Source: a virus (lineage: Duplodnaviria; Heunggongvirae; Uroviricota; Caudoviricetes). From it: a DNA stretch of 64,000 nucleotides. This document shows, in pieces, positions 4,038 through 59,925 of this stretch. Position numbers and translations under genes: made by a program. Below the pieces are notes generated by a model. That model was not told the DNA's origin, did no database searches, and was given only the letters and a program-made list of their open reading frames with translations. The stretch lies in the IMG/VR virus record IMGVR_UViG_2526164631_000023; one strand, written 5' to 3'. The first letter of the stretch is position 1. Each line of letters begins with the position of its first letter.

Positions 4038-4050
4038 AACTCTAATGATT

Positions 4051-4061
4051 TGTGTTAGAAA
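4051..4061 (+). promoter_or_regulatory. TGTGTTAGAAA regulatory motif copy followed by TAAAAT
   Basis: ATTTGTGTTAGAAAACTAAAATTAAATCACA between the divergent minus operon and the capsid-like gene. Confidence 0.4.
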
Positions 4062-4195
4062 ACTAAAATTAAATCACATAACAACATGAGTGTTAATATA
4101 TTTTATTTTACTAAACCTATTGACTAAATCACAAAGTAGGTATTGTTAGCCCGTCAAAAGAACCTTCACGCCGCGCCCGAATTTAGGGCTTAACC

Positions 4196-5893
4196 GTGAA
4201 TAAAAACATTCAGCCAGCTCGTGATCGCGAGCGCGAGATTATGAATCGGGCGGCAAGCGTCATGGCTATGACCGTCGATCCGACCACCGATGCAGCAGGC
4301 AACATGATTGCTGACCAGGCAGTAATGATGGAAAACCTGGATAAAGCAATCCAGAAAGTGCCTATGTTTGAAGGCGTAAATCCAGAGGTCGCTCGTCAGA
4401 TCACTGGTGGGTGGGCTATGTCTCTGCATGAGTATAAACGTCAACATGGTCATTACCCGGCAAGTGACATCCTGGCGAACGCACACATGGCTCTTGAGCG
4501 CCTGATGACTGAATGTGCCAGTGATACCCATGAAGGCACGGGTAAGGCAATGTTTGAGTCTGTCGCGCAATCAATGCGTAGCTCTGACGGCGTAATGAAA
4601 GTTGCTCAATATGCTGCTCTAATTCTGCCTGCCTCTCTGGGCGCTGCTACCAGTGATGCCTGTACTTTTGTTCCTTGTGATCGTGACGAGTCAAATATTT
4701 ATGAACTGGTCAACGTAGCAGGCACAAAATTCGGCACCTTCAACCAAGGTGACGAACTGAATATGCAGTCAGCTGGTGTTTATTCTCAAATGAAGCGCCT
4801 GTATGCCCTTTCCACTAAAGGGGATGGCAGCACCAAAACCTTCCAGTTCAACATCCAAAATTTTGAGGGACAATCCTGCCCGCTTCGCGCTGGTTATAAC
4901 AAACTGCTGATCAACCGCAAACCGTCCAAAGTTGACGACGGCGATGGCAACCTTTATTTCAATGCTAAAGACAGCAAAGGTAATGCTTTCTCAGCGACTG
5001 CCAAAGTTGCCTATGACACTGGTGTCATTGACATTACATTTACCCAGGCTCCGCCAGAAGGTACTGAAATTGCTGTTCAGGTCGAAATTAACATCGAGCG
5101 CAATCCAAGCCTGATTCCGGTGATCAACCAGGCTATGCGTAAGTACGAAGTTCGTCCGTCCCAGTACGTACTTGCTTCCGAACACACGGTAATGTCCGCA
5201 TCCGATTTAAGCCGTGAGCACGGCCTTGAATTAGCGGCACTTCAGTTCTCCGCGATGCGCAACTGGATCTCCCATGAAACCGACATCATGCGTCTGCGCA
5301 CCCTGGTATTCCATACCGTTTATGGTCGTGAATTTGATGTGGCTCTGCCGGAAGCTCAAAACTATGAGTCCTGGGTCGGTCTCCTGCGTCACGTAGTAAA
5401 CGCTCTGTCTCAAGAAATGGCAAATCGTACCCTGACAACGGGTATTCGTGGCGGCTTTGCTGGTAGTGACGCCGCGAACTTCCTGCGCTCTCTGCCTCCA
5501 CAGCACTTCCAGATCGCACCAGGTTACGTTCAGTCGCCGTATGTACAGTACATCGGCACCCTGTTTGGCACGATTCGTATTTACGAAGTGCCGCAACCTG
5601 TCTGTGAGCAATTCCAGGCACAGGGATATGACTTCGGGCTGGATGACATCTTCTTCTATGGGCGTGGCGAAGGCATCGGTAAAGCCGGTCTGATTGCTGG
5701 TGATGCAGTCCCAGCAATCCCTTACGTTCACGAAACCAATCCGTCTCTCGTTAACCGTACCACTCTCTGGGGCAGTGCCATCAACGAAGTACATCCTCGC
5801 AACGGTGAAAACTACTTCACCCGCCTGCGTCTGACTCGTGCCAAAGAAGGTGCTATCGACATGCTGACAGGCAAGGTTAACGAAAAAAAGTGA
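4196..5893 (+). CDS. large virion structural protein, possibly major head protein (P1 gp23-like size)
   Basis: 565 aa; position upstream of an Ig-like protein and tail sheath; assignment by size and context only. Confidence 0.35.
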   Translation: MNKNIQPARDREREIMNRAASVMAMTVDPTTDAAGNMIADQAVMMENLDKAIQKVPMFEGVNPEVARQITGGWAMSLHEYKRQHGHYPASDILANAHMALERLMTECASDTHEGTGKAMFESVAQSMRSSDGVMKVAQYAALILPASLGAATSDACTFVPCDRDESNIYELVNVAGTKFGTFNQGDELNMQSAGVYSQMKRLYALSTKGDGSTKTFQFNIQNFEGQSCPLRAGYNKLLINRKPSKVDDGDGNLYFNAKDSKGNAFSATAKVAYDTGVIDITFTQAPPEGTEIAVQVEINIERNPSLIPVINQAMRKYEVRPSQYVLASEHTVMSASDLSREHGLELAALQFSAMRNWISHETDIMRLRTLVFHTVYGREFDVALPEAQNYESWVGLLRHVVNALSQEMANRTLTTGIRGGFAGSDAANFLRSLPPQHFQIAPGYVQSPYVQYIGTLFGTIRIYEVPQPVCEQFQAQGYDFGLDDIFFYGRGEGIGKAGLIAGDAVPAIPYVHETNPSLVNRTTLWGSAINEVHPRNGENYFTRLRLTRAKEGAIDMLTGKVNEKK

Positions 5894-6005
5894 TGGTGGC
5901 GAACGTGTCGGTATCACCAACGTCACTTGACGTAGATGAAGGTGAAACTATCGCCGCGAACACTTCAAAGGCACAGAAAAAACAAAGCAGAAGTAAGGCA
6001 AAAAC

Positions 6006-6026
6006 ACGCCCCTGATTAAGGGGCGT
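6006..6026 (+). terminator. stem-loop terminator after the capsid-like gene
   Basis: ACGCCCCTGATTAAGGGGCGT hairpin. Confidence 0.4.
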
Positions 6027-6038
6027 TCAGGAGAAAAA

Positions 6039-6317
6039 ATGGCAAACATTCAAGTAACTATCACGCCATCTGACGCAACAGACAAATCTTTCACTGTTGA
6101 GTCAGATCACCCTGATATTGTCCGGGTTGATGGCACTACATGTACCGCTCTTAAGGTCGGGCAGGCAGTGCTGACAATCAAAACAAATGACGGCAATAAA
6201 ACCGCACAGTGCACAGTCACTGTTAGGGAGGCACATAAAAGCGTAAGCACCGTCAGTGTTGAACCAACTACGAAAGAAGTTACCGTAGGCGATAACTTCA
6301 CGGTAAGCCAATCCTGA
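6039..6317 (+). CDS. bacterial Ig-like (Big_2-type) domain protein
   Basis: 92 aa; pattern VTITPSDAT...VGQAVLTIKT...TVTV typical of Big_2 fold. Confidence 0.5.
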   Translation: MANIQVTITPSDATDKSFTVESDHPDIVRVDGTTCTALKVGQAVLTIKTNDGNKTAQCTVTVREAHKSVSTVSVEPTTKEVTVGDNFTVSQS

Positions 6318-6384
6318 TCAGAGGCTGCCCATTAACCGTGGGTAGCCTTGCCTCGTTCTCTCGCTTTAGAGGATAAGAACCAGC

Positions 6385-8043: not shown

Positions 8044-8080
8044 TTTATAACCCCCGCTAAATGATGCGGGGGAGAGAGGT

Positions 8081-8821: not shown

Positions 8822-8870
8822 GTGACATAGGCCGTCTGCAAAGGTGGCCTCTACCTGGGAGAAATAGCGT

Positions 8871-9461: not shown

Positions 9462-9469
9462 GAGTATTT

Positions 9470-10565: not shown

Positions 10566-10580
10566 CGCTGGAGGCGCAGA

Positions 10581-11288: not shown

Positions 11289-11300
11289 AATGCTTTAATT

Positions 11301-11522
11301 ATGTGTGCTGTAGGGAAAGGTTTACGTTAAATGTGTGCTGCCGGGAAACCCCATTGCTCAAGATGTGTTGTAGAGGGAATGGTAATGGCAACATGTGTGC
11401 TGGAGGGGAATTTCGCATGTAAAGAGCGTCATTTATCCCTCCAGCACACATCTGAAATAAGCAATCCTCTGAAATTCCCTCCACCACACATCCAGACATG
11501 AAACTATCCCTTCAGCACACAT
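11301..11522. repeat. incA-like RepA iteron array (about 7 copies, 4 direct and 3 inverted)
   Basis: 19-bp units ATGTGTGCTG(N)GGGAAA at about 11301, 11331, 11362, 11392 and CAGCACACAT-type inverted copies at about 11436, 11475, 11507; matches the P1 iteron consensus. Confidence 0.7.
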
Positions 11523-12386
11523 TTAATCTGTTGGTTTAAGTTTCGGATTCCGAGAGTGAACGATAATGAAGTTTTCACGACCTTGCTTTTCAATGGTGCA
11601 ATCGAGATAACCTATTGTTTTTAACTGGTCTATAGCTTTTTTTATCGTTCTGTTTTGCTCACTTACCGATGACATCAAGGCTAATCTTTCACGTATTCTG
11701 GCAAATGAAATAGGTATTGGACGTGCCGGGAGGCTTTCTATAAAGGTATATATGGCCTGGGCTGCTTCTTTTTTAGGTAAAGCGCGAAGTGCGTGTTGCT
11801 GTAGAAGCACCCGATAGTCTAGCTGGAAGATTTCCCATAACTTGGAATCAGCCTCCAGTTCAACGACATCTGTTTCAAAGTCAAAATATCCCGTTTTAAG
11901 CAGGCCAGTATTGTAGCTTCCACGAGCACTTTTCCCTCTTTTGAATGAGATGCCTTTGTTGCGTAACCGACCTAAAGAATCGTGGATCGTGTTTCTTAAT
12001 TTCCCATCAAGTCGCTTAGATGGAAATCCGCACGCCTTTGCAAATTCTTGAAAAGAAAGGCGAATTGTATTCGATGATAAGCCATACTTGCTAAATGAGT
12101 AGATTACCCCAATCCAGACTTTGAAATCAGTATCCATGTCCAAGCGAGGGCCAGTGATCTTGATGTTGTCGTAGCCTTCTGCTTGAGCTATTTCCAATTT
12201 GGAAAAAACAGATGATGCATCTATCTCGTTGTTTTCACCCTGTTTTTTAGTTGGTTTAGGGACGAAAACACCAAGCCGCATAAGTGCGACAGGTTGAACA
12301 GTATTGTTCGAATTAACTGTTAATTCTTTAGCCTTGCTTTCAATGTCAGCATAAAGAATATCAGAGATAAATGACTTATCCATCAA
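11523..12386 (-). CDS. repA: RepA replication initiator (P1 R-replicon type)
   Basis: 287 aa; MMDKSFISDILYADIESKAKELTVNSNNTVQPVALMRLGVFVPKP... recalled as near-identical to P1 RepA; flanked by iterons on both sides. Confidence 0.85.
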   Translation of the reverse strand: MMDKSFISDILYADIESKAKELTVNSNNTVQPVALMRLGVFVPKPTKKQGENNEIDASSVFSKLEIAQAEGYDNIKITGPRLDMDTDFKVWIGVIYSFSKYGLSSNTIRLSFQEFAKACGFPSKRLDGKLRNTIHDSLGRLRNKGISFKRGKSARGSYNTGLLKTGYFDFETDVVELEADSKLWEIFQLDYRVLLQQHALRALPKKEAAQAIYTFIESLPARPIPISFARIRERLALMSSVSEQNRTIKKAIDQLKTIGYLDCTIEKQGRENFIIVHSRNPKLKPTD

Positions 12387-12447
12387 TAAGTTACCGTCAT
12401 GTTGTGAATAAAGTTTACGACAGTGGATATCCGGCTTTTTTTCCCAT

Positions 12448-12652
12448 CAGCACACATCCTACATCCCGCCAGCACACATGTAAAACCCTCCAGCACACAT
12501 ATTTTTCCCGTCAGCACACATCGTTCTCCCTCCAGCACACATCTGAATAGTGGTTAAAGCCTTATGTGGCGCGGCCTGAAGAGCTACGGGATCTATTTGG
12601 TACTATATGGATCTAATCAGGATCTATATATTGGATCTATCCTGTGGATAAA
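12448..12652. promoter_or_regulatory. oriR/incC-like origin: 5 iterons, GATC cluster and DnaA box
   Basis: CAGCACACAT at about 12448, 12469, 12491, 12513, 12534; five GATC in 12588-12650; CCTGTGGATAAAA (DnaA box) at about 12641. Confidence 0.75.
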
Positions 12653-20106: not shown

Positions 20107-20200
20107 TAATTCTTCCCCCAAATGCGGGGGAAGAACAACGGAAATCACAAACTGAGCATACTCTCCTTTGGTTCATTGCTTATGAAGGGGCTATGTTCGT

Positions 20201-28619: not shown

Positions 28620-28723
28620 ATGTCCCCCTTGTATGTTAAGGAGGGAGATTTTAGAAGATGTCCTGTAAGGAAATAACAAACTGACTAAGTTAGTGGCGCA
28701 TTAGATGTTATTTCTGGAGGGGT

Positions 28724-32409: not shown

Positions 32410-32491
32410 TCAAAAGGGGGCGAAATGCCCCTTTCACTTCTCTGTTCTCACATAAATCACACTCTTTTTACACTCACAGCTTTCTCTATAG

Positions 32492-33889: not shown

Positions 33890-33953
33890 ACCAACCGCTG
33901 AAATCACATACTGATTATGCTGCCGCAAAACTGGAAACAATTTGCGGTGATTC

Positions 33954-36648: not shown

Positions 36649-36666
36649 TCGCCTTGTTAAGTTAAA

Positions 36667-36675
36667 TTTCTAACA
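36667..36675 (-). promoter_or_regulatory. TGTTAGAAA motif copy (minus orientation)
   Basis: AAATTTCTAACATAG. Confidence 0.35.
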
Positions 36676-36761
36676 TAGTGTATTTATATACACTGTTGAT
36701 CCTGGTGGATGGGATCGAGTAGGATCGCGGTCACTGCTCCGGTAGCGACTGCCAAAAAAGC

Positions 36762-36848: not shown

Positions 36849-37337
36849 GTGAGTATTTTAAATTCAGTTTCAGTAACTTTCAACACTTCTGAGTATAAAA
36901 ACAACACTGAATACCACAAAAAAATCAAAGGTCATCAGTTGAGTTTTTTTGCTCGTCATAGCGGTCTTCTTTCCCCTTCACATAGCGCCATTATTGCCGA
37001 GTTCGCCAACCTGGCAGGGTCTACCGATGAATACATGATCCGTCGCTCATATGCTGATATGTCCGAGATTACAGGACGCAGTATTTCTACTGTGCGCCGG
37101 GCATTTGCTGAAGCGACGAAGTGCGGAATGCTTGTTAAGCAACATCAGGTAGCGAATAACAATGCCCAGGTGTGTAACGTATATCGGTTTACGACACAAT
37201 TTCTCCACTTCATTCATGTAGCAATGGAGATAGGGGGTAAGCAGGGCATCAAATTTGCCAACGCCACAAAACTGGTTAAGCAGTTGATTTCAAAGGTTCG
37301 TTATTTTTTGAAACTGGGACCCCCCTGTTCAAATTGA
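36849..37337 (+). CDS. HTH-domain protein (possible transcription regulator)
   Basis: 162 aa; MSEITGRSISTVRRAFAEA helix-turn-helix-like segment. Confidence 0.3.
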   Translation: MSILNSVSVTFNTSEYKNNTEYHKKIKGHQLSFFARHSGLLSPSHSAIIAEFANLAGSTDEYMIRRSYADMSEITGRSISTVRRAFAEATKCGMLVKQHQVANNNAQVCNVYRFTTQFLHFIHVAMEIGGKQGIKFANATKLVKQLISKVRYFLKLGPPCSN

Positions 37338-37810
37338 ACAAGTCCCCCCATGTTCAAAATGAACAGCCAATAGAAAATAAGAGTCACTCTATAGCCAAAA
37401 GAAGAGAAAGATCATGCGCGGTTCAGCCAAAGGCTTCACCAGCAGATAGTTCTCAAACGGCTAACGTGGTGCTGGATAAAAAACCAGTAATCAGGGAAGA
37501 ACATACCAACCACTGCCTGGCGGCGGCAAAAGCGAGAGCTGCAAAGCGTCGTTCAGACGAGGGGCACGCAAAACGGCAGGCTCTGTATCGTACCGCTGAA
37601 AAGCTGGCAAAAAAATTTGCATGGATACGTAGTGCCGCTACCGCAGTGAATAAGCCTAAACAATCCAGTGCCCTGGATTTCTCAATGGATTATTCTGGCT
37701 CCCAGGGGTGTGCAACCATTGGTGAAGCCTTTGACCTGATGAAACAGCGTGGCTATCGGTCTGAATTTGACCGTGAGGATTGGTCAATCCCGGCTGGCTT
37801 TAGGGGATGA
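37334..37810 (+). CDS. hypothetical basic protein
   Basis: 158 aa; ORF track. Confidence 0.3.
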   Translation: MNKSPHVQNEQPIENKSHSIAKRRERSCAVQPKASPADSSQTANVVLDKKPVIREEHTNHCLAAAKARAAKRRSDEGHAKRQALYRTAEKLAKKFAWIRSAATAVNKPKQSSALDFSMDYSGSQGCATIGEAFDLMKQRGYRSEFDREDWSIPAGFRG

Positions 37811-37862: not shown

Positions 37863-37873
37863 TGTGTTAGAAA
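37863..37873 (+). promoter_or_regulatory. TGTGTTAGAAA motif copy with partial inverted partner
   Basis: TTTGTGTTAGAAAATTAATTTGATGTTTCTAAATC. Confidence 0.4.
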
Positions 37874-37999
37874 ATTAATTTGATGTTTCTAAATCGGAAT
37901 GTATGATCTGCATCATCGACTGAAGTCATCCATTGCTGAAATTTTTAGTTGATCTTCCATGTTTTCAGGCTTATATTCATGTCGTCGTAGCAAATTCTG

Positions 38000-38200
38000 C
38001 GACCGGGTTTAGCAGCCTGAATACGAATGCGGACAACCGCAGATATCCGATATTGCGGTATTTTTGTGTCCGTAAAACCACGTTACGCCCGAATTATGGT
38101 GGGGCGTGATGGGGAGGCTTCGGCCTGCTGGTTTCATTCGTGCCAGTCTGCTAACCCCGTCACGTCCTGCCACCCGTTTAGCAGCGGGTGCGCAGGTTGT
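38000..38200 (+). ncRNA. candidate c4-like antisense RNA / structured leader
   Basis: GGGTTTAGCAGC (about 38004) and CGTTTAGCAGCGGG (about 38174) are both complementary to GTCTGCTAACCCC (about 38146); hairpin CACCCG-TTTAGCAG-CGGGTG. Confidence 0.2.
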
Positions 38201-38225: not shown

Positions 38226-38450
38226 ATGGTTAATGCCAATCCTTGCTCGCGCCCGGAATTTATCTGGCGTTTCCACTCCCTGCAAAAACACTGCGATCAC
38301 TTCGCAATTGCCGCAACTGAAAAAGAAGCCCGTTCTCTGATCCCTGATCAACATGGCGTCCTGACTGGCCGTTTCTCTACTTCATCACAACCAAACACTA
38401 ATCCTTGGTATCGCAATATTACCAATCCCGGAATTGCGGAGGCACACTGA
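38226..38450 (+). CDS. small ORF translationally coupled to the antirepressor (P1 icd-like arrangement)
   Basis: 74 codons from ATG 38226 (GAGG RBS); stop TGA 38448-38450 overlaps the antirepressor ATG 38450 (TGATG). Confidence 0.3.
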   Translation: MVNANPCSRPEFIWRFHSLQKHCDHFAIAATEKEARSLIPDQHGVLTGRFSTSSQPNTNPWYRNITNPGIAEAH

Positions 38451-39157
38451 TGGATATCTGCATTCTTGAAAAGCCATCAATGACCAGCATTGAGATCGCG
38501 GAGCTGGTGGGAAAACGTCATGACAATGTGAAGCGTACCATTGAAACATTAGCCGAATCCGGCGTTATTGTTCGTCCTCAAATTGAGGATGAACCAAAAA
38601 TAGATGTAATGGGGCGTTCTCGATTAATTCAGGTGTTCCGATTTAGCGACGAGCAAGGCAAACGAGACAGTATCATTGTAGTCGCACAGCTTTGTCCTGA
38701 GTTTACTGCCCGGCTGGTGGACCGCTGGCGCGAACTGGAAGAACAAGCACGCCAGCCGTTGACCGAAATAGAGATGATCGCCGCAATGGCTGCAAATGCA
38801 GTTCAGCAGCAAAAGCGGCTTCATGTTGTTGAGTCAAAGGTTAGCCAGGTGGTAGAAACCGTCGAGCAAATCAAGAAGGGCAACATGCCGGAAGGTTACA
38901 TTGGCTACCGCCAGCTGGCGGCAAAATGCGGCCTGACCGAAGCCAAATGTCGCAACCTGGTTAACGCTTACCGGATTCCCACCGATACACATGAGTTTTT
39001 AACTCCAGAGGGGGTATTGTCGCGTCGTTCCATCGTGGCCTTATCTCCCTTCATGAATGCTTTTAACCGGATGATGTCGGAGGCTGAACACCGAGGAAAA
39101 CGCTGGTATCACCCCAAAATGGGGCAATTCCAGGTGATCGGTTGGGGAGGTGAGTGA
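38450..39157 (+). CDS. Rha-family antirepressor-like regulatory protein
   Basis: N-terminus MDICILEKPSMTSIEIAELVGKRHDNVKRTIETL matches the Rha domain; GGAGG RBS. Confidence 0.6.
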   Translation: MDICILEKPSMTSIEIAELVGKRHDNVKRTIETLAESGVIVRPQIEDEPKIDVMGRSRLIQVFRFSDEQGKRDSIIVVAQLCPEFTARLVDRWRELEEQARQPLTEIEMIAAMAANAVQQQKRLHVVESKVSQVVETVEQIKKGNMPEGYIGYRQLAAKCGLTEAKCRNLVNAYRIPTDTHEFLTPEGVLSRRSIVALSPFMNAFNRMMSEAEHRGKRWYHPKMGQFQVIGWGGE

Positions 39158-39872: not shown

Positions 39873-39947
39873 ATTTTTCTCCCGGTCATGGGTTAATAAG
39901 TAGGCAAACTATGGGGAGTATGTGATTTTGACGGTAGTATCGTCCCC

Positions 39948-47332: not shown

Positions 47333-47593
47333 ATGCGAAAGAATCGTAGGTTTACGGTCGAAGACCTAAAGGAATATTCCATATCGAAGGGGTATATCCT
47401 TGAGTTCCACCGATACAAGAAGGTTTTTACGCTGCGAAAAGCAGAAAACCCTGCGAACTGGAGCTGGATATACTTTCCTCACACCGATGATAAGTTGGTA
47501 GAACTTGTTGATGATTTAACCTATGAAGGTTGGTTGATCGCAATCGACAAGACAATCAAAGAATTATCCGAACAGGATAAAATAACCCTTTAA
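47333..47593 (+). CDS. hypothetical protein
   Basis: 86 aa; hairpin GGGTAAATGCCATGCGATTTACCC follows. Confidence 0.3.
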   Translation: MRKNRRFTVEDLKEYSISKGYILEFHRYKKVFTLRKAENPANWSWIYFPHTDDKLVELVDDLTYEGWLIAIDKTIKELSEQDKITL

Positions 47594-47729
47594 AAATAAC
47601 AGGTTGGGTAAATGCCATGCGATTTACCCTCCTTGTTGATTAAGGTCACTCTTTACTCTAAAAGCAAATCCGACCTGTTGCATATAGACCATCCTTGAGT
47701 AGTATCTCTCTTGTTTTACAAATCTAACG

Positions 47730-48224
47730 TTGTTGTTATTATTTCGCATATTTACTATCAATGAGTGTGTTAGAAAAATAGCGCGAAAGAGAAGGCGTCG
47801 CAGTGAATATTCTGAAACATCCCCACATGCCGCAGCTCTTAGAGAACTGGAGAAAAACCCAGATCTAATCAAAAGGAACCATGAGCATTACGAGCAGGTT
47901 CGCGTCCTGGACTGGTTGTATCGCAATATGCGTTATGTGTATGAGCATACTCACGCCACTCCAAACGGTGGTCTGCGAGGCATAAGGACGGCAATAAAAA
48001 TGGTGGCAGAGGGCCAAAAGAAGGTATATCCCGATCTTTCTATAGACCTTGCTTGTGGGGGATACCACGGAATGCGCATTGAGATGAAACATGGGAGAAA
48101 TCGCCTGACTCCCGAACAACTCGTCTGGATGACTCGCCTCACTGAAGCCGGTTACTACTGCTTTGAGGCGCGCAGTGCCGCTGAAGCCATAAAAGCTATC
48201 ACGGAGTATGTTTGTCTTGATTAA
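47730..48224 (+). CDS. VRR-NUC domain nuclease (true start downstream of the motif, probably non-ATG)
   Basis: EQVRVLDWL ... GYHGMRIEMKHGRNRLTPEQ fits the VRR-NUC/PD-(D/E)xK pattern; no in-frame ATG between the motif and the domain. Confidence 0.45.
   Translation: MLLLFRIFTINECVRKIARKRRRRSEYSETSPHAAALRELEKNPDLIKRNHEHYEQVRVLDWLYRNMRYVYEHTHATPNGGLRGIRTAIKMVAEGQKKVYPDLSIDLACGGYHGMRIEMKHGRNRLTPEQLVWMTRLTEAGYYCFEARSAAEAIKAITEYVCLD
47766..47776 (+). promoter_or_regulatory. TGTGTTAGAAA motif copy
   Basis: TGAGTGTGTTAGAAAAATAG. Confidence 0.4.
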
Positions 48225-48769: not shown

Positions 48770-48810
48770 TTTATTGCATCTTCCGATACCGTCATCAAAC
48801 TAATAAAATA

Positions 48811-48819
48811 TGTTAGAAA
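48811..48819 (+). promoter_or_regulatory. TGTTAGAAA motif copy
   Basis: AATATGTTAGAAAACTAATTT, about 15 bp before the RBS of the 48834 gene. Confidence 0.4.
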
Positions 48820-48833
48820 ACTAATTTAAAAAA

Positions 48834-50057
48834 GTGACGGGAACAGCAATGAGTCAACACACTGATACTTCTAATCTGGAAATTATCTCGACAGCAATTG
48901 AAACGCTGCGCACACAAATCGCTCTTATACAGAAACGGAATCCGGGTGATGACCTGTCAAAGCGACTGCACGAGAGTGTCATTGCCACTACAGATAACCT
49001 GGTGGCGGAAATCAACAAGCTGCTTGATGATGGGGCAGTTGATTACAATAAGCTGGTGGATCAGTTTGAGGAATACCAACAAGCAGTTAATGATGGCTTG
49101 ATCCGTTTTTCACAAGTCACAGGCGTATCAGCGACAGTTGAAAGCCTGGGTGATGCAGTTAATCAATTTGCCGCGAATATGCGTAATGAGATCGGCAATC
49201 TGGAAGCGCGTCTTGAACAGGCAAATACACTGCGTAAATCTGCCGAAGCCGATTTGAACCGTTACAAAAAAGACTATCCGCCAAGCCTGACAAAGCGGCT
49301 GGATGTTGCGGAGAAGGATAACCGCACGCTGAAAAGAGAGCGCCGGGAACTAAAAGAGCGTTTAACCAAGCTCAATCAGCAATGCATTGATTATCAAGGC
49401 GAAGGCGTCACACTGCGTAAAAAGTTGGCTACAGCGCAGAGCATTATCGAAACATTAAAGCGAGAGTGCTCACAGCTTGGTCACGATCTGAACCGTGCTT
49501 GTGGCATGGGACAAAGACCAGAGACATTTCCACTTATGTATGATGGAAGGGATGCCATTGCCTACATCCATGAGTATCCGCACGGCCTGGTTGCGGAAAC
49601 TGGGCAGCGTGGCGAAGCACTGCTGACGGCTAATTACCATCAACAAATCAGAACCAATCGCCTGTTAACGATGGATGTGATCCCATCGGTATGGGGAACG
49701 CCGCTTTACTATCGCCTGCCGGGCTTCGAAAAGGACTGGAATACCGACATAGACGAATGTCTCGCAGATAAAATTATGGCGTACCTGGAGACGGATTTTC
49801 CGCGCTTATATCGCCGGATTATGGACTCTAAGGATGCGCCAATCGATGAATTAAAAATGCGTCCGGAGACGCTGGAGGCAATCAAGCAGACGGAGTTTGA
49901 TACTGTATTCAGTGTGGCCTGCATTCCAAGCTGTTTCCATGAAAGCATCCCGTTCATGCAAGGAGATCGTCGTCAGGAAATCATTGACGCTTGCCGGGTA
50001 TGGGCGAACGAATGGGATAAGAAGAATGGGGGTGTAGAAGATCTTTATGGGAAATAA
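48834..50057 (+). CDS. hypothetical protein with N-terminal coiled coil
   Basis: 407 aa ORF. Confidence 0.4.
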   Translation: MTGTAMSQHTDTSNLEIISTAIETLRTQIALIQKRNPGDDLSKRLHESVIATTDNLVAEINKLLDDGAVDYNKLVDQFEEYQQAVNDGLIRFSQVTGVSATVESLGDAVNQFAANMRNEIGNLEARLEQANTLRKSAEADLNRYKKDYPPSLTKRLDVAEKDNRTLKRERRELKERLTKLNQQCIDYQGEGVTLRKKLATAQSIIETLKRECSQLGHDLNRACGMGQRPETFPLMYDGRDAIAYIHEYPHGLVAETGQRGEALLTANYHQQIRTNRLLTMDVIPSVWGTPLYYRLPGFEKDWNTDIDECLADKIMAYLETDFPRLYRRIMDSKDAPIDELKMRPETLEAIKQTEFDTVFSVACIPSCFHESIPFMQGDRRQEIIDACRVWANEWDKKNGGVEDLYGK

Positions 50058-50068
50058 TGTGTTAGAAA
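50058..50068 (+). promoter_or_regulatory. TGTGTTAGAAA motif copy followed by TAAAAT
   Basis: TAATGTGTTAGAAATCTAAAATCACA, near-identical extended element to the 4051 copy. Confidence 0.45.
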
Positions 50069-50214
50069 TCTAAAATCACAATTCGAATGTATTGATTGTG
50101 AAGATAACTTAACATAGAATTTTCCTTGCTGGTGGGCGGTACCCACGTTTCGCTTGCTGGGCTTGATAGTCACTTATTGGTTATTGTTCGCCCACCAGCA
50201 TTTAACAAATTAAA

Positions 50215-50224
50215 GTGTTAGAAA
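50215..50224 (+). promoter_or_regulatory. GTGTTAGAAA motif copy followed by TATAGT
   Basis: AAAGTGTTAGAAATGTATAGT. Confidence 0.4.
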
Positions 50225-51292
50225 TGTATAGTAATGCAAGAGCACGCTTTGGCACCGTGCAGGCCAAAGTTCAGCAGGTTTAGTGCGGAAAGTGGTTTCA
50301 GAGAGAGCACTTTGCGGAGTAAACGACAATACATGTTGAGCCACGGAAGGTCTTTTTAAGGTGTTCATTGATGATGGTCCGGCAGAGAGTAACGGTACAT
50401 GCTGCATCTAATCATCAATGCACATCTTCAACATTAAGGAGGCATAGGGATTTTTGTGGCGGTTACCTTTTGCCCTGAGTCTCCTTAATGTTGCGGTAAT
50501 GCACCTATGCGGATGTGGCCTTGCATTGTGTCTTGAAAGAATGGGGTAAGGCCGGGGATATCCCCAGGGGGAGGCACCCCCGCTGCAACGAACAGCCACA
50601 GACGGCAGTCGAGTGATGGAAACGTGTAAAGACTTTAAACCTCGTTACGGCTGGCGTGGCAAACGCGACAACCGAGACAGAGCGGTGACGGGCGGAGAGA
50701 GTGCCGCATCAAGAAAGAAGCCGACTTGTGATCCCTTTCAGCGGGCATTTGAAAGTGAATCCAGCTCAGGCAGTCGGCTTCTTTCTTGTGTGAGATGTAG
50801 CGTATTTGCCCATCTTCGGGTGGGCTTTTTTAGGGTTTTCGTCATGGTTAGCGACTTTGCGGCGGTTTAGAAACTGACCATTAAAGTAAATGCAAACGAT
50901 GATCTGATGATGGTAGCGGCCTAAGAAGCCAGACGCCACGGGGTATGAGTCGTCCCCCGTCAAAAAAATCGACCGCAGAGTGTCCCCGTCTGTGTATTAG
51001 GGAACGGGGAGGCATAACAGGCAAGGGCGCTGGTGTGATTAACCAGATGAATGAGAAGGGTCAGGTCTTTCTGGTCAGCGCCCTTACCTGTTGCGTCCTT
51101 CCCGCGTAACAGCCATTGCTTAATGGCATCCTGGGAGAACTTCTTGTAACGGGTATATCCCGTCATGCTGAAGGCGCTAATCACGCTGGAAGCCAGGGTT
51201 GTGCATCCCCTGTTACCGAATTGCAGCCAGGGCGCGGTGCGCCGAAAAGCATACGGAGGTGGAAGCCCTCGCCGGAGACGTACCCGGCAAGT

Positions 51293-51369
51293 GATGGTGT
51301 AGCTCAGTAGGATAGAGCAGCAGCCTTCTAAGCTGTCGGTAGGTGGTTCGAATCCACCCACCATCGCCA
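51293..51369 (+). tRNA. tRNA-Arg (anticodon TCT)
   Basis: Manual cloverleaf: acceptor GATGGTG/CACCATC, D-stem GCTC/GAGC, anticodon loop CTTCTAA, T-arm GGTGG-TTCGAAT-CCACC, CCA end. Confidence 0.7.
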
Positions 51370-51374
51370 ATTTA

Positions 51375-51461
51375 GGGGAGTTAGTCCGTAGGGGTAGCGG
51401 GGTAGACTGTAAATCTACTGTCATTGCGACTCGGGTGGTTCGACTCCATCACTCCCCACCA
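51375..51461 (+). tRNA. tRNA-Tyr (anticodon GTA), long variable arm
   Basis: Acceptor GGGGAGT/ACTCCCC, anticodon arm GTAGA-CTGTAAA-TCTAC, T-loop TTCGACT, CCA end. Confidence 0.65.
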
Positions 51462-51465
51462 AATT

Positions 51466-51541
51466 GCCGGTTTAGCTCAGTTGGTAGAGCAGTCGCTTTG
51501 TAAGCGAATGGTCAGCGGTTCGATCCCGTTAACCGGCACCA
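51466..51541 (+). tRNA. tRNA-Thr (anticodon TGT)
   Basis: GCCGGTTTAGCTCAGTTGGTAGAGC...TTTGTAA...GGTTCGATCC...AACCGGCACCA; close to E. coli tRNA-Thr as recalled. Confidence 0.7.
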
Positions 51542-51995
51542 ACACAACAGGTAAGAGCATTTGTAGAGTTCGACTCTCTACCGTGGGCTTTTTCCCGCGA
51601 TGCGAGCCATAAATGCTCTTACCGTTGTGATGAAGTGCAGCTCTTTGAAGCAACCAGAAGATAAGCATCTGGCTTCACAACATAAACCGCAGGAACGACC
51701 AATAAACGGTAGTCCGTATGGAGAACACCCCGTTGAGGAAGAGGTCTGGCCGGAACCGTAACCGGCACTACAACGTTGAGAACACTGGCGTAACGGGGTC
51801 ATATCCCAATCTACGAATAAATGTTGCGTTGCAGCGTGACAACCAGTGTTCTCAACATTGTGGTGAATGCGCAGGCTGATGCGCGAAAGACATTGCAGCT
51901 ATTGCGGAAAAGAGCTGTTCGGCGGGGCAATTAAACGCCCGTGAGAGTCTGAAATAACCGCAAGCCGGAGATCAGCACCGGTCGCCACAATAACG

Positions 51996-52082
51996 GGAGA
52001 GTAGGGAGCATGGTGCTCAAGCGGTCTTGAAAACCGTCCCATTGCGCAAGCGATGATGGTTCGATTCCATTACTCTCCGCCA
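51996..52082 (+). tRNA. tRNA-Ser (anticodon TGA), long variable arm
   Basis: Acceptor GGAGAGT/ACTCTCC, anticodon arm CGGTCTTGAAAACCG, T-loop TTCGATT, CCA end. Confidence 0.65.
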
Positions 52083-52373
52083 GTGCAACGTTAAGAGTAT
52101 TTGGCTAATTAAGCGAATGCCGGAAGCAGAACCGGATCACCAAATGCGTACAGGCGTCATCGCCGCCCAGCCAGCCAAGTGCTCTTACCATTGCGGTGAA
52201 TGCGGCTAAGCGCACGCGGAACAGTTAAAACAGTAAAGGTGGTCTTTTTACTGGCGTAACGAGAATCCATAAGTGATCCGGCGTTAATTGTTAACTGGTT
52301 AACGTCACCGGGAGGCACCCGGCACCGCAACCTAACAGCAATGGCGTTTTGTCTTAAAAGGTGGCTGCAAGTG

Positions 52374-52502
52374 ATGGATTTTTGGGCGTTTGCCGATAAA
52401 AACCCGGAGTGGACATTATTGTTTCTGCTGGTGGTTGCATACGGGGTAGAGCAAGCGGCAAAAGCCTTACGCGGTTCTGGCAAAAAGCGTAAGCGTAATT
52501 AA
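52374..52502 (+). CDS. small hydrophobic peptide (42 aa) inside the tRNA island
   Basis: AGGTGG RBS 10 nt before ATG; MDFWAFADKNPEWTLLFLLVVAYGVEQAAKALRGSGKKRKRN (one TM plus basic tail). Confidence 0.25.
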   Translation: MDFWAFADKNPEWTLLFLLVVAYGVEQAAKALRGSGKKRKRN

Positions 52503-52511
52503 CAGTAATCT

Positions 52512-52587
52512 GGCCCTTTAGCTCAGTGGTTAGAGCGGGCGACTCATAATCGCACGGTCACCGGTTCAAGTCCGGTAGGGGCCACCA
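52512..52587 (+). tRNA. tRNA with anticodon CAT, most like tRNA-Ile2 (lysidine type); elongator Met not excluded
   Basis: GGCCCTTTAGCTCAGTGGTTAGAGCGGGCGACTCATAATCGC...GGTTCAAGTCC...GGGGCCACCA, close to E. coli ileX-type tRNA as recalled. Confidence 0.65.
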
Positions 52588-53615: not shown

Positions 53616-54007
53616 TGTACGGGACTACCAAATTAAGCACTCAACAGGCCACCAATATGGAGTGGTCTATCGCTAACTGTAAGATCGTGTCATGCAATGC
53701 CACGCGTACTGATGTGGGCCATAAAAGCACTATAACAGGCTATCTAGTAATGACCACCAGGGGGATGAGGGTTAGATTTCGCTGGAAAGCAGAGCAAGTA
53801 ACGCCATTCAGAGAGCCATCAATGCCGCTGCAGGTTGAGCAGGATTATCTATGTTTACCAGAAATAGATGGAGGAATGCTGGTGGAGTCTGATGGTAGTA
53901 AGGCTGATTTTGAAGCCAATTTGAAGCTGGCACAGGCCGTAATCAATAGTTATCGCGGACAGTGGATCGCAAAAGTGAAACATGTTGTTCGTTTGTCTCG
54001 CTGGTAG
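53615..54007 (+). CDS. hypothetical protein
   Basis: 130 aa. Confidence 0.35.
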   Translation: MYGTTKLSTQQATNMEWSIANCKIVSCNATRTDVGHKSTITGYLVMTTRGMRVRFRWKAEQVTPFREPSMPLQVEQDYLCLPEIDGGMLVESDGSKADFEANLKLAQAVINSYRGQWIAKVKHVVRLSRW

Positions 54008-54114
54008 TGTTAGGTATTTAATATTAATTTTCTAATATAATCATCTTTTTACCAGTCTATACAGTTTTAACATTCTCATTATCATCCCCTCGGTCATTTC
54101 CTGCCGGGGGATTA

Positions 54115-54507
54115 ATGGAACAAATCAGCAGCGCAGAAATTGCGGATATCATGATCAGGGCTGACTGCTATCTGACAGTCACTGAAATTACCACTCTCGC
54201 CAAAGAAAAATACCCTCATCTCCATGTTTCACGAGTAAGTGTAACTAACATCATTCGTCATTTTGTTCGTTCAAGCAGGGCAATCTGTGAGCTTGATGAT
54301 CGTGTTTACCCACGAAAATACTGGTTGCATGGCCTGAACGGATATCAGTTCAAGGTGCGTGGGCGAACCCCTGAATACGGCAGTTTACTGGTTAAAAACT
54401 GTAGCAGGAAATCAGTCGAACAGGCGCGAAAAGAGCAACGAGAGCTGGTGGACATGGCGAATAAGCTGTGGAATGCCGCCGTTAAAAAGCGTGGTGTTGC
54501 TTTATGA
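54115..54507 (+). CDS. hypothetical protein upstream of the terminase genes
   Basis: 130 aa; stop overlaps the start of the next gene. Confidence 0.3.
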   Translation: MEQISSAEIADIMIRADCYLTVTEITTLAKEKYPHLHVSRVSVTNIIRHFVRSSRAICELDDRVYPRKYWLHGLNGYQFKVRGRTPEYGSLLVKNCSRKSVEQARKEQRELVDMANKLWNAAVKKRGVAL

Positions 54508-57376: not shown

Positions 57377-57379
57377 AAG

Positions 57380-57396
57380 CCCCGCGGTGCGGGGCC
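57380..57396. terminator. bidirectional hairpin between convergent genes
   Basis: GCCCCGCGGTGCGGGGC. Confidence 0.5.
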
Positions 57397-57404
57397 GGTG
57401 GTGA

Positions 57405-58442
57405 TTACCAGAGCTTTGCGGCGTGCTGCGTTTGGGGGAATGTGTATCCGTAACGTTCTTCGATTGCTTTGCCGTATTTTTTACGCGCTTCATTCAGTTT
57501 GATGCCGGTCAGGTCGTCTCCAGAGGCCATCATTACGTCTAACAATTCCAGATCCATTTTATCCAGCCTTGCCATTGCTTCACGCGATGTACGAATCTTA
57601 CGTTCAATGATATGGCGAATGGCCGGATCGGCATCCTCCAGCATCTTAGCGGATTTCTGCTTAAGGTTTTCGTTGCGAATATCGATGTTCCTTAAGATGT
57701 ACGACTTCGCAACGTAGCTTGGCTGGTGTTTTTCCAGGTCACGAACACGATATAAGTTAAAATCGCCGAGAAGGCTGCAAGGTACCGATTCGACGCCAGA
57801 ATAAATTGTAATGCTCCGGCGTTCACCAACATTATTGACAACGGGGATCGTTGTCTTCGGTAGTCTTGCGAAAACCAATGCGCCATGTGCGCCAACTCTA
57901 AAGCGAGAAAGGGCATTGCTGCCTTCGATGTTTGTTGTCAGCACAACATCTGTATATGCCTCTTTACGCGCCCGGTAGATCTCGCCTTCAGGCTCAGCTT
58001 CAAAGAAGCGCTGTTCTTCTTCAAGAGCACCTACGATTTGAGAAAAAACCCTATTTTTCAGGCTTTTCTTTATGATTTTGTCGTATTTTTTGAGCAATTG
58101 CTCACGTGTAAATGTACGTGTTGTTGTAGCGCTTTGCACAACAACATGCGTGCTTTGATTGGTGTCCTCAATGATGAATGGGATCGGAGAATATACAGAC
58201 TCAACAATGTTCGACGCTTTGCCGTCGGCATCGCGACACATGTCAACGAAGGCTTTCCATTCAGCAAGACATTTTTCAGCTTCTTCTAATATGTTTTGGT
58301 CATGCGTTAATGCAACATGGCGGAATTCCTCGCCAGCATAACTGGTATCATGGAAAACAGAGTTTGCGACCACCAGCTCTTTCCACCGTTCAGCGGTTTG
58401 CAGGAACCGTTTGTACTCTTTCTCGATCGACTTCTTACTCAT
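57405..58442 (-). CDS. hypothetical protein at the position where P1 carries the c1 repressor (candidate regulator)
   Basis: 345 aa; between terminase and the lox-like site; TGTTAGAAA motif immediately upstream of its start. Confidence 0.3.
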   Translation of the reverse strand: MSKKSIEKEYKRFLQTAERWKELVVANSVFHDTSYAGEEFRHVALTHDQNILEEAEKCLAEWKAFVDMCRDADGKASNIVESVYSPIPFIIEDTNQSTHVVVQSATTTRTFTREQLLKKYDKIIKKSLKNRVFSQIVGALEEEQRFFEAEPEGEIYRARKEAYTDVVLTTNIEGSNALSRFRVGAHGALVFARLPKTTIPVVNNVGERRSITIYSGVESVPCSLLGDFNLYRVRDLEKHQPSYVAKSYILRNIDIRNENLKQKSAKMLEDADPAIRHIIERKIRTSREAMARLDKMDLELLDVMMASGDDLTGIKLNEARKKYGKAIEERYGYTFPQTQHAAKLW

Positions 58443-58461
58443 TATTCCTACTCGATTTAGT

Positions 58462-58470
58462 TTTCTAACA
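58462..58470 (-). promoter_or_regulatory. TGTTAGAAA motif copy (minus orientation)
   Basis: AGTTTTCTAACATAAAAT. Confidence 0.4.
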
Positions 58471-58650
58471 TAAAATTACTATGACAAATTTATGTCGAAT
58501 AACAGAGTGAGTAAAGGATAGAGCTGTGATTTTTTGTCATCAATTTTAGAAAACCAACTGTATAAACCACACTTCGCAAATTAAAGACCATGAAGGCAAC
58601 GTGTTACTGGTCAGAATCAATCTGTGATGGATTAAAAAAATCGCCATTTT

Positions 58651-58684
58651 ATAACTTTAAATAATTGGCATTATTTAAAGTTAG
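58651..58684. other. lox-like recombination site (13-bp inverted arms, 8-bp spacer)
   Basis: ATAACTTTAAATA ATTGGCAT TATTTAAAGTTAG; arms 12/13 complementary; compare loxP ATAACTTCGTATA GCATACAT TATACGAAGTTAT. Confidence 0.6.
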
Positions 58685-58835
58685 GCTATAATCATGTGTA
58701 GATGAACAGTGTTGACATCACTGAAAATACGTGCCTCGAATCAAAGGCTTGTATTTTGAAAATTAACTTATAGCTACCCTGTCATTTTTATATTTTTCGC
58801 GTAGCGTCATCTGTATATAGAGGTCAAATAGTTTC

Positions 58836-59864
58836 ATGAGTGAATTAATTATCTCTGGCAGTTCCGGTGGTTTTCTGCGCAACATTGGCAAAGAGTACCA
58901 GGAAGCCGCAGAAAACTTTATGCGGTTCATGAATGACCAGGGGGCTTATGCGCCGAATACTCTGCGCGACCTCCGGTTGGTGTTTCATTCCTGGGCGCGC
59001 TGGTGTCACGCTCGCCAGCTTGCCTGGTTTCCGATCTCACCAGAAATGGCCCGCGAGTATTTTCTTCAGCTGCATGATGCCGATCTGGCTTCGACCACCA
59101 TTGATAAGCACTACGCCATGCTGAACATGCTGCTTTCGCATTGTGGCCTTCCGCCACTTTCGGATGATAAAAGTGTTTCTCTGGCTATGCGGCGCATCCG
59201 GCGCGAAGCGGCAACTGAAAAAGGCGAACGAACAGGCCAGGCTATACCGCTTCGGTGGGACGATCTGAAACTGCTCGACGTCCTGTTGTCCAGGTCAGAA
59301 CGGCTGGTAGACCTGCGCAACCGGGCTTTTCTCTTTGTTGCATACAATACGCTGATGCGTATGTCGGAAATATCGCGTATTCGTGTAGGTGATCTGGACC
59401 AAACAGGTGACACTGTCACGCTACATATTTCACACACGAAGACAATAACGACCGCCGCCGGGCTTGATAAGGTGCTTTCCCGTCGCACTACTGCTGTGCT
59501 GAATGACTGGCTGGATGTTTCCGGGCTTCGTGAACATCCTGACGCGGTGCTGTTCCCGCCGATACACCGTAGCAATAAGGCCAGGATTACGACAACGCCC
59601 CTTACTGCACCTGCAATGGAGAAAATATTCAGCGACGCCTGGGTGTTGCTGAATAAAAGGGATGCCGCGCCAAACAAAGGGAGATACCGGACGTGGACCG
59701 GGCATAGTGCTCGTGTCGGGGCCGCTATCGATATGGCTGAAAAGCAGGTGTCTATGGTGGAGATCATGCAGGAAGGAACCTGGAAGAAACCGGAAACACT
59801 TATGCGGTATCTGCGCCGTGGCGGTGTGTCTGTGGGGGCTAATAGCCGCTTGATGGATTCGTAA
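58836..59864 (+). CDS. Cre-like tyrosine site-specific recombinase
   Basis: 342 aa; recalled Cre alignment: RNRAFLFVAYNTLMRMSEISRIRVGDL, WTGHSARVGAAIDMA, VSLAMRRIRRE. Confidence 0.85.
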   Translation: MSELIISGSSGGFLRNIGKEYQEAAENFMRFMNDQGAYAPNTLRDLRLVFHSWARWCHARQLAWFPISPEMAREYFLQLHDADLASTTIDKHYAMLNMLLSHCGLPPLSDDKSVSLAMRRIRREAATEKGERTGQAIPLRWDDLKLLDVLLSRSERLVDLRNRAFLFVAYNTLMRMSEISRIRVGDLDQTGDTVTLHISHTKTITTAAGLDKVLSRRTTAVLNDWLDVSGLREHPDAVLFPPIHRSNKARITTTPLTAPAMEKIFSDAWVLLNKRDAAPNKGRYRTWTGHSARVGAAIDMAEKQVSMVEIMQEGTWKKPETLMRYLRRGGVSVGANSRLMDS

Positions 59865-59875
59865 ATTAAATTTCT
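59865..59875 (-). promoter_or_regulatory. TGTGTTAGAAA motif copy (minus orientation) directly after the recombinase stop
   Basis: AAATTTCTAACACAT. Confidence 0.4.
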
Positions 59876-59925
59876 AACACATCTTTTTAGATTGATATCT
59901 TTGCTGTAAAGTACCCTCGCCTATT

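Follow-up and report, generated by a model that had tools for sequence, protein, structure and literature searches.

Dispersed candidate operators of a diverged C1-family repressor in a D6-like, P1-related plasmid prophage

A short asymmetric motif is scattered between the genes of a 64,000-nucleotide stretch of viral DNA (the window), and its copies are very probably, judging from sequence, the operators of a diverged C1-family prophage repressor encoded at 57405..58442 on the minus strand. The window is a D6-like plasmid prophage of the P1 family, 96-98% identical to phage D6, whose GenBank record carries no regulatory annotation. Most likely the copies make up the kind of element expected of such a prophage, the regulon of a C1 homologue, in a sequence unlike that of P1. 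The motif was not found in the literature searched; the D6 genome paper lies outside that search, and a prior description is possible.

Exact copies of TGTGTTAGAAA number five against 0.01 expected (4051, 37863, 47766 and 50058 on the plus strand and 59871 on the minus strand), and with up to one mismatch there are nine against 1.6 expected, a count reached in none of 100 shuffles. The nine dispersed copies of a preliminary description of this DNA are thus real and exceed chance frequency, though not in an AT-rich background as stated there, since the GC content of the window is 45-51%. Three of its nine coordinates are slightly off: 48811 becomes 48809, 50215 becomes 50214, and the minus-strand copy placed at 59865 does fall within the extended site 59863-59881 but has its 11-mer at 59871-59881. 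A position weight matrix, the kind of check proposed there, added a tenth copy, TATATTAGAAA at 54029-54039 on the minus strand, upstream of lpa, which the description had missed. The motif widens to an asymmetric 19-bp consensus, TRTGTTAGAAAWYTAANNT, derived from 48 distinct site sequences, with 13 matches in the window at up to three mismatches against 3.5 expected. It is without extended dyad symmetry, some copies having just a 4-bp TTAG/CTAA repeat. A TAnnnT hexamer follows 2 nt downstream in seven of nine copies, in keeping with the -10-like hexamer described earlier, and is part of the conserved site; the TAAnnT tail of the site, itself conserved, may represent a -10 hexamer, and about 6 nt upstream of the motif an 'AA' is weakly conserved.

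Placement is far from random. A maximal ORF map is 91.6% coding and leaves about 8% of the window non-coding, and even under this map eight of the ten copies lie wholly in non-coding DNA (P about 1e-7). The claim that copies are always intergenic holds for at least these eight; the other two fall within ORFs of the map, one where pmgM is given an over-long TTG start and one in a 65-aa ORF that is unannotated in D6. In an unbiased count, TGTTAGAA and GTTAGAAA are the top 8-mers of the non-coding DNA. The sites are:

4051..4069, plus strand: candidate operator TGTGTTAGAAAACTAAAAT, between orf52 and gene 23
36659..36677, minus strand: candidate operator TATGTTAGAAATTTAACTT, between pro and the split repL; analogue of P1 OrepL
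37863..37881, plus strand: candidate operator TGTGTTAGAAAATTAATTT, head of the c4-icd-ant immunity operon; analogue of P1 Oc4
47712..47730, plus strand: weak, uncertain candidate TGTTTTACAAATCTAACGT with 2 mismatches, overlapping the -35 of the predicted pmgM promoter
47766..47784, plus strand: candidate operator TGTGTTAGAAAAATAGCGC, upstream of pmgM
48809..48827, plus strand: candidate operator TATGTTAGAAAACTAATTT, upstream of pmgS; analogue of P1 OpmgR
50058..50076, plus strand: candidate operator TGTGTTAGAAATCTAAAAT, head of the tRNA/tci operon leader; analogue of P1 Oban
50214..50232, plus strand: candidate operator AGTGTTAGAAATGTATAGT, second site in the tRNA/tci operon leader
54006..54024, plus strand: degenerate inverted partner AGTGTTAGGTATTTAATAT, forming with 54021-54039 a candidate paired (divalent) operator at lpa
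54021..54039, minus strand: candidate operator TATATTAGAAAATTAATAT, upstream of lpa; analogue of P1 Olpa
58454..58472, minus strand: candidate operator TATGTTAGAAAACTAAATC, ending 11 nt before the c1 start; analogue of P1 Oc1
58543..58561, plus strand: weak inverted candidate ATTTTAGAAAACCAACTGT, about 85 bp upstream of c1
59863..59881, minus strand: candidate operator TGTGTTAGAAATTTAATTT, between the cre-like gene and the orf117-dut operon

The genes and RNAs to which these sites are referred are:

3645..4037, minus strand: orf52, divergent from gene 23
4196..5893, plus strand: major capsid gene 23, divergent from orf52
36849..37337: N-terminal half of the split repL (lytic replication), earlier called an HTH gene
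37971..38177, plus strand: C4 antisense RNA (38092-38177) and a1b1 targets (37971-38023), 3' of the candidate operator at 37863
38405..39157: Rha/winged-helix protein, anti-repressor-like, adjoining the c4 operon
54115..54507, plus strand: lpa, late-promoter activator gene
57405..58442, minus strand: C1-family prophage repressor gene of 345 aa, the proposed binder, in the c1 position between pacB and cre

Several sites can be followed into D6 and other relatives. The 4051 site has a D6 orthologue at position 54209 of the D6 record, the 36659..36677 site is present in D6 with one more mismatch, and the 48809..48827 site is kept in three relatives. The 50058..50076 site starts directly 3' of the pmgS stop codon and is an inverted pair in relatives. 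With respect to predicted promoters, the 37863..37881 site abuts a -35 (TTGATG at 37880), as P1 Oc4 abuts its -35, and the 47766..47784 site lies at about +16 relative to the promoter at 47715-47742; predicted sigma-70 promoters overlap the sites convincingly at only some loci. Inverted pairs of the form TGTTAGAAA-N12-TTTCTAACA, 34 bp in length, occur in D6 and relatives, the loci in relatives being lpa, ref, ppp-pdcB, hrdC and the region after pmgS. The window holds one degenerate pair, at lpa (54006-54039), both arms of which match the TGTTAGAAA core in CP099330 and CP091837. Since an inverted orientation makes no sense for promoters, the paired sites are not promoters. Footprint comparison found the c1-upstream site, 58454..58472, a candidate for autoregulation, nearly invariant in five relatives and the paired lpa site retained, while the flanks diverge. 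No position varies within the aligned block at 58543..58561, and the 51% and 44% relatives have a match to the TGTTAGAAA core there.

The motif also varies with the type of repressor. Syntenic positions are held down to a repressor identity of 44%, and intact elements with repressors 44-100% identical carry 4-14 copies of TGTTAGAAA per locus. Elements whose repressor is about 30% identical have 0-1 copies and carry in the same region an intergenic CCTTAGA(A/T)T, including beside c1 and the cre-like gene; P1 has no copies. Co-variation does not separate C1 from proteins that diverge along with the whole element; Lpa likewise falls to 35-43% identity in the ~30% clade.

The product of 57405..58442, put forward in the preliminary description as a candidate binder, has gained from the comparison as a distant C1 homologue. 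BLASTP against P1 C1 gives 21% identity over 240 aa (E = 2e-8), PHROG 1678 is matched by both proteins at E = 1e-140 or better, and the precomputed Pfam assignment is PF27008, Phage_P7_repressor_C1. Against the NCBIfam equivalog NF041318 (cut-off 500 bits) the window repressor scores 25.3 bits and P1 C1 607 bits; by these profiles it is a distant C1 subfamily and not the P1 C1 equivalog. Homologues of Lxc and Coi were not found by tblastn and tblastx, and the lxc position after ulx holds an unrelated 86-aa ORF (47333..47593). The other binder then suggested, the HTH protein of 36849..37337, turned out to be the split repL half listed above and is no candidate binder. The repressor family is present in 149 PLSDB plasmids.

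In P1, 22 dispersed asymmetric 17-bp operators have been described, with repL and lpa among the controlled genes (PMC8546580). The P1 record places operators at loci corresponding to those of the motif (Oc1, Olpa, Oc4, OrepL, Oban, OpmgR, O26, Oref and Odmt), the sites of the window and D6 lying at c1, lpa, c4-icd-ant, repL, the head of the tRNA/tci ("ban") operon, pmgS, pmgM, ref and hrdC-dmt, of which the ref and hrdC-dmt sites are from D6. Homologous repressors, asymmetric sites of 17-19 bp in at least ten copies across a plasmid prophage of about 90 kb, both orientations, and single as well as tail-to-tail paired sites are common to this system and P1/P7 C1, as are the targets c1, lpa, c4-ant, repL, a ban-type operon, pmgR/S, pmgL/M, ref and dmt. 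The sites themselves differ, at 19 bp here and 17 bp in P1, with paired sites of 34 bp here and 28 bp in P1 (Obanab), and the sites at 23/orf52 and cre/orf117 are without a P1 operator counterpart. The resemblance to the P1 C1 operator noted earlier thus holds for position and only loosely for sequence, with about 9-10 of 17 bases agreeing whichever orientation is compared: the P1 consensus ATTGCTCTAATAAATTT has no match in the window at up to three mismatches, and the P1 core GC[TA]CTAAT occurs twice in the window against 21 times in P1. Together with the inverted pairs, the shared positions bear out the earlier preference for an operator over a promoter element.

Mycobacteriophage L5/TipsytheTRex offers a second parallel, one immunity repressor acting at many asymmetric, scattered operators and 'stoperators' in promoters and short intergenic gaps (PMC9283540). 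Several copies here lie just 3' of stop codons or in 5' leaders, and a roadblock role is conceivable. The L5/TipsytheTRex repressor is an unrelated protein of 183 aa with a dual HTH and a 13-bp site (PMC9283540), and L5 sites are strictly co-oriented with transcription, whereas three of ten are reversed here and inverted pairs occur.

On the analogy of P1 C1, the repressor would bind the asymmetric site of about 19 bp as a monomer, singly or in tail-to-tail inverted pairs, at or just 3' of early and lytic promoters. The units repressed would be lpa, c4-icd-ant, repL, the tRNA/tci operon, pmgM, pmgS and the orf117-dut operon. The key target would be lpa, as its repression would silence all late operons, and the site of c1 itself would provide autoregulation. 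Sites occupied in the plasmid prophage would prevent initiation or serve as roadblocks until freed by anti-repressor action.

The preliminary description had left a late-activator box open. Read as an Lpa-dependent late-promoter box, the motif would lie at about -25 to -15 relative to TAnnnT, and the geometry fits: P1 Lpa promoters have a -22 box (AAGTnACTT), 4 nt and a -10, the motif here likewise stands at a fixed short distance upstream of its hexamer, and an Lpa homologue (PF25716) is encoded. Since this homologue shares only 31% identity with P1 Lpa, its box would be expected to have a new sequence, and no enrichment of the P1-type late box was seen. The late operons, however, are marked by a different and correctly oriented motif, AAATCACA-N7-YAnnnT, which precedes 23, R-S-U, lydA-dar, prt-pro, the hydrolase gene, mat and sit, and the late-activator alternative is rejected on this ground. 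The window has 10 matches to it against 3.4 expected. In D6 all ten matches are intergenic and nine are correctly oriented, at mat, prt, the hydrolase gene, lydA, R, pmgB/sit, 23, ddrB and darB; AAATCACA-N7-YAnnnT thus appears to be the D6-type late box. Copies at 4071 and 4126 come just after the 4051..4069 site, and the longer element that the 4051 and 50058 copies were said to share is real, its extra part being this second motif, AAATCACA. The dispersed motif, unlike P1 Lpa promoters, is missing from the upstream regions of R-S-U, lydA-dar, prt-pro, sit and mat but occurs in front of c1, lpa, c4-ant and repL; only two of 11 P1 late-promoter loci are shared with its sites. Three window copies face away from the adjacent downstream gene, and relatives have convergent inverted pairs, all of which makes an Lpa box very improbable. 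A shared core of sigma-70 early promoters (spacer plus -10) with no dedicated binding protein would account for the TAAnnT tail and the upstream 'AA', and is quite unlikely: sigma-70 promoters do not conserve the sequence of their spacer, upstream hexamers match -35 poorly, a promoter scan never picks the motif's own hexamer, reversed copies and inverted pairs would imply promoters that are antisense or convergent, and the motif switches with repressor clade while host range stays enterobacterial.

There is a similarly small chance that the motif is bound by another phage regulator, such as the Rha/winged-helix protein (38405..39157) whose gene adjoins the c4 operon, or by a host factor such as Tus at Ter-like sites. 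The best copy does resemble TerB (TATGTT..CTAAA), yet the alignment requires a 2-nt insertion and the likeness averaged across copies is not significant (P = 0.135); a host-factor site would not change between related plasmids in the same hosts, and C1 is favoured by the match to the map of P1 C1 operators and by the presumed autoregulatory site before c1. Least probable of all is a non-regulatory repeat, be it a module boundary, a recombination sequence or a chance of composition. Copies do sit at junctions between gene modules, and some of these modules vary between relatives, but enrichment is well above that of shuffles, a site is nearly invariant within diverged intergenic DNA, the distance to the c1 start codon is constant and the inverted pairs have fixed spacing.

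Tus is the replication terminator of E. coli and arrests replication forks. In structure models of the repressor, Tus was the only large-fold match, with low TM-scores of 0.29-0.32 (Tus PDB 1ECR, 4XR0-2). The candidate c1 operator and TerB have the string TATGTT...CTAAA in common, and the autoregulatory layout would be alike, the site ending 10-11 nt ahead of the start codon. No sequence similarity is detectable: PF05472 (Tus) had no match at E up to 10 among nine C1 homologues, and the C1 and Tus profiles, compared by hhalign, gave a probability of 1.1%. PF27008 repressors may have the two-domain alpha/beta fold of Tus, as single polypeptides that grip some 20 bp of asymmetric site in a cleft like that of Tus; C1-family repressors and Tus may be of common ancestry, and dispersed C1-operator complexes might act as polar blocks on transcription or replication. 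At least three operator dialects (P1, D6-type and CCTTAGAAT-type) would follow repressor clades at syntenic positions. Taken jointly, a Tus fold, kinship with Tus, a polar-barrier role and dialects marking immunity groups form a tentative proposal, rated somewhat below even. The tus gene is thought to have been domesticated from a 'plasmid gene' (PMC6549158); if the proposal is true, this source could be the immunity repressor of a phage-plasmid. A Tus-like fold, if real, would give a structural account of how C1 proteins read asymmetric sites, with implications for how the Tus-Ter fork trap arose.

E. coli, Salmonella and Shigella commonly carry D6-like phage-plasmids, for which the candidate operator, with the likely late-promoter box, would supply a regulatory map. 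Operator sequence would predict which elements are homo- or hetero-immune, and, if the dialects track repressor clades, immunity groups of P1-like phage-plasmids may be readable from sequence. The diverged repressor and its sites would also form a candidate orthogonal repressor-operator pair beside P1 C1.

The dispersed repeat, TGTGTTAGAAA with the core TGTTAGAAA, occurs five times exactly in the window against 0.01 expected, and nine times with at most one mismatch against 1.6 expected. The nine copies of the preliminary description are borne out as a repeat, with three of their coordinates 1-6 nt off; a weight matrix built from them, the search proposed there, finds a tenth, 54029-54039 (-), upstream of lpa. 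Site sequences from the window, Escherichia phage D6 and three relatives (48 distinct sequences, pooled) give the asymmetric consensus yAA-N5-T(G/A)TGTTAGAAA(A/T)(T/C)TAAnnT, and its 19-bp core pattern has 13 matches in the window against 3.5 expected. Eight of the ten copies are wholly non-coding (P ~1e-7) even under a deliberately greedy ORF map in which 91.6% of the window is coding, which upholds the intergenic placement first reported. One of the remaining two lies in an over-extended TTG start, the other in an ORF without D6 annotation. In an unbiased count of non-coding 8-mers the motif ranks first and AAATCACA second. The background had been called AT-rich; GC content is in fact 45-51%.

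Phage D6, a P1-related plasmid prophage (MF356679.1), is 96-98% identical to the window by megablast, in reverse orientation. P1-homologous genes annotated in its record include c1, lpa, pacAB, cre, pmgS, 23, sit, S and darB, and no promoters or operators are annotated there. The whole D6 genome holds 14 copies of the motif with at most one mismatch. The repL gene, a single gene of 320 aa in D6, is represented in the window by two overlapping ORFs, 36849-37337 and 37334-37810 (+), owing either to a frameshift or to a sequencing error. The "HTH protein" 36849..37337, previously offered as a binder of the motif, is the N-terminal half of split repL and is rejected in that role. Elsewhere, a repA-like gene, 11523..12386 (-), is flanked by arrays (11289-11522 and 12387-12560) of repeats of ~11 bp, ATGTGTGCTG.. 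and the complement ..CAGCACACAT, which look like replication iterons. Five plus-strand tRNAs are called by ARAGORN in window 51293-52587 (Arg-tct, Tyr-gta, Thr-tgt, Ser-tga, Met-cat), whereas the D6 record has three (Ser, Thr, Asn), which would lie on the other strand; the discrepancy may come from the annotation of the record or reflect a real difference.

Sites of the motif, with the RNA features at c4
immediately upstream of c1, window and D6 copies
upstream of lpa, window and D6 copies
54006-54024, degenerate inverted partner at lpa, among the 13 core-pattern matches
37863, head of the c4-icd-ant operon
37971-38023, a1b1 targets of C4 RNA (Rfam)
38092-38177, C4 RNA (Rfam)
upstream of repL, whose halves are the ORFs at 36849 and 37334
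head of the tRNA/tci operon leader, two sites
before pmgS
before pmgM
over the -35 of the predicted pmgM promoter, weak copy, among the 13 core-pattern matches
before ref, in D6
before hrdC-dmt, inverted pair, in D6

A conserved, non-coding, asymmetric 19-bp element, single or paired, stands at C1-type target loci: the sites of D6 and the window fall at the loci that carry Oc1, Olpa, Oc4, OrepL, Obanab, OpmgR, O26, Oref and Odmt in the P1 record. In P1, C1 acts at 22 dispersed asymmetric 17-bp operators and controls repL and lpa (PMC8546580). The spacing at c4 is also similar, about 108 bp from the 37863 site to the a1b1 targets and about 115 bp from Oc4 to a1 in P1, and a predicted -35 adjoins the site as it does in P1. 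The distal part of the tRNA/tci leader shares homology with the stretch of the P1 ban-operon leader that follows Oban. The P1 operator consensus itself has no match in the window. Between pmgS and the tRNAs lies a stretch of ~1.2 kb without D6 annotation (50077-51290), with hairpins, one of them (50808-50825) terminator-like, and only dubious short ORFs; an Rfam search of the leader, 50000-51300, returned nothing meaningful. Beside the operator at 36659 are an inverted repeat, AGTGTATTTATATACACT, and a GATC cluster (TTGATCC..GGGATCG..GGATCG), at window 36679-36740, an arrangement reminiscent of the Dam-methylation sites in the P1 kilA-repL promoter region.

An initial hypothesis took the motif for the D6 counterpart of the Lpa late-promoter box. 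In the P1 record a late promoter consists of AAGTnACTT, the "-22 box", followed by 4 nt and the -10. With a TAnnnT hexamer 2 nt downstream, the motif would occupy roughly -25 to -15, the position of that box, and among the genes of the element is one for an Lpa homolog (31% identity, Pfam PF25716). The window shows no enrichment of the P1 late-box pattern, with 14 matches where 16 are expected, and a different sequence is common to the intergenic DNA upstream of the genuine late operons. The D6 form, AAT[CA]ACA-N7-[TC]AnnnT, has 10 matches, all 10 intergenic in a 90%-coding genome and 9 of them correctly oriented, before mat, prt, the hydrolase gene, lydA, R, pmgB/sit, 23, ddrB and darB; these loci include the counterparts of P1 LPmat, LPpro, LPlyz, LPdar, LPs, LPsit and LP23. 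The window has 10 matches to AAATCACA-N7-YAnnnT with at most one mismatch, against 3.4 expected; copies in the correct orientation stand before 23, R, lydA, ddrB, prt, the hydrolase gene and darB.

Copies of AAATCACA-N7-YAnnnT in the window
4071 (+), weaker copy
4126-4146 (+)
20142-20162 (+)
28671-28691 (+)
32454-32474 (+)
33901-33921 (+)
39908-39928 (-)
39952-39972 (+)
50073-50093 (+)
58525 (-), weaker copy

This second motif probably represents the Lpa-dependent late promoter of D6-type elements, in place of the P1 AAGTnACTT box, so that a motif other than TGTGTTAGAAA explains the late promoters. Loci of TGTGTTAGAAA overlap with P1 late promoters only at 23 and pmgL/M. The longer element described at 4051 and 50058 is present, but as an operator followed by a late-box copy and not as one element. 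Together with the separate late-operon motif, reversed copies and inverted pairs speak against the late-box hypothesis, which is rejected, and favor operators, the reading preferred in the preliminary description, over the late-activator box that it had left open; as promoters, convergent pairs would be meaningless.

The proposed binder of these probable operators, the product of 57405..58442 (-), is a remote C1 homolog (21% identity to P1 C1, same PHROG, precomputed Pfam PF27008) and scores far below the NCBIfam equivalog cut-off. In plasmids whose repressors are 80%, 70% and 68% identical, nnTGTTAGAAA is retained in the orthologous intergenic gaps, frequently in the form of 34-bp inverted pairs, TGTTAGAAA-N12-TTTCTAACA, which parallel the tail-to-tail divalent operator Obanab of P1. 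In alignments the c1 site is nearly invariant and the lpa pair is kept while the surrounding DNA has diverged; pK91 (L008), a prophage remnant only, was left out of the conservation analysis. Contigs with repressors of 51% and 44% identity have TGTTAGAAA at c1 as a pair of inverted copies separated by roughly 85-95 bp, and the 51% contig has further copies at lpa, behind pmgS and beside cre. Elements with repressors of ~30% identity, from Leclercia (pE1_003, L007), Pantoea (pEuc3, L011) and Citrobacter (pCfr13-1, L012), carry neither TGTTAGAAA nor the GC[TA]CTAAT core of P1, which itself has 21 such cores and no TGTTAGAAA. In the same region they carry intergenic (G)CCTTAGA(A/T)T, some of it beside c1 and the cre-like gene, at 4-12 copies of CCTTAGA(A/T)T per 22-38 kb; this is a candidate third operator dialect, the CCTTAGAAT type. 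The motif thus switches among P1, D6-type and ~30% elements, so that site sequence tracks repressor clade. Since Lpa diverges in parallel, the motif is assigned to C1 on positional evidence and not on co-variation. Among viral contigs the inverted pair occurs in 24 stretches, and in the 15 of these that are D6-like it lies at the ref, ppp-pdcB, lpa or post-pmgS locus. Nine or ten IMG/VR contigs without DNA similarity to D6 also carry the TGTTAGAAA-N12-TTTCTAACA palindrome (L014, L016, L017, L024, L027, L029, L030, L033, L034, L036).

In structure models of the repressor, Tus, the E. coli replication terminator protein, is the only large fold matched, at low TM-scores (0.29-0.32), and a Tus-like fold may be a candidate. 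No Tus-C1 link was found in the searchable literature, sequence-level tests were negative, and the resemblance of Ter sites to the operators is statistically weak (best copy P ~0.015, mean over copies P = 0.135). Homolog searches found no Lxc or Coi. An 86-aa ORF, 47333-47593 (+), D6 orf13, follows ulx in the position of P1 lxc and has no detectable similarity to Lxc. The motif strings return unrelated primers only in the searchable literature; a prior description is possible.

Upstream of c1 the site follows conserved -35-like (TTTACT) and -10-like (TAAATT) blocks, and in our reading the c1 operator would then lie in the 5' leader. The reversed sites at cre/orf117 and pro/repL might, on a weak reading, fall in the promoter spacer. 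A consensus promoter scan supports operator-promoter overlap only partly. Copies directly after the stop codons of pmgS, orf5, cre and pro could be roadblocks, like the stoperators of L5 (PMC9283540), although their orientation is not uniform.

P1 C1 binds its operator as a monomer, and by analogy the C1 homolog would bind the 19-bp element in the same form. The proposed regulon resembles that of P1 in its way of working and in having a repressor of the C1 family, and differs in that its operators have another sequence and length and its pairs another geometry. On binding, lpa and with it every late operon would be repressed, as would the ant immunity operon, lytic replication and a number of early units, and c1 would be autoregulated.
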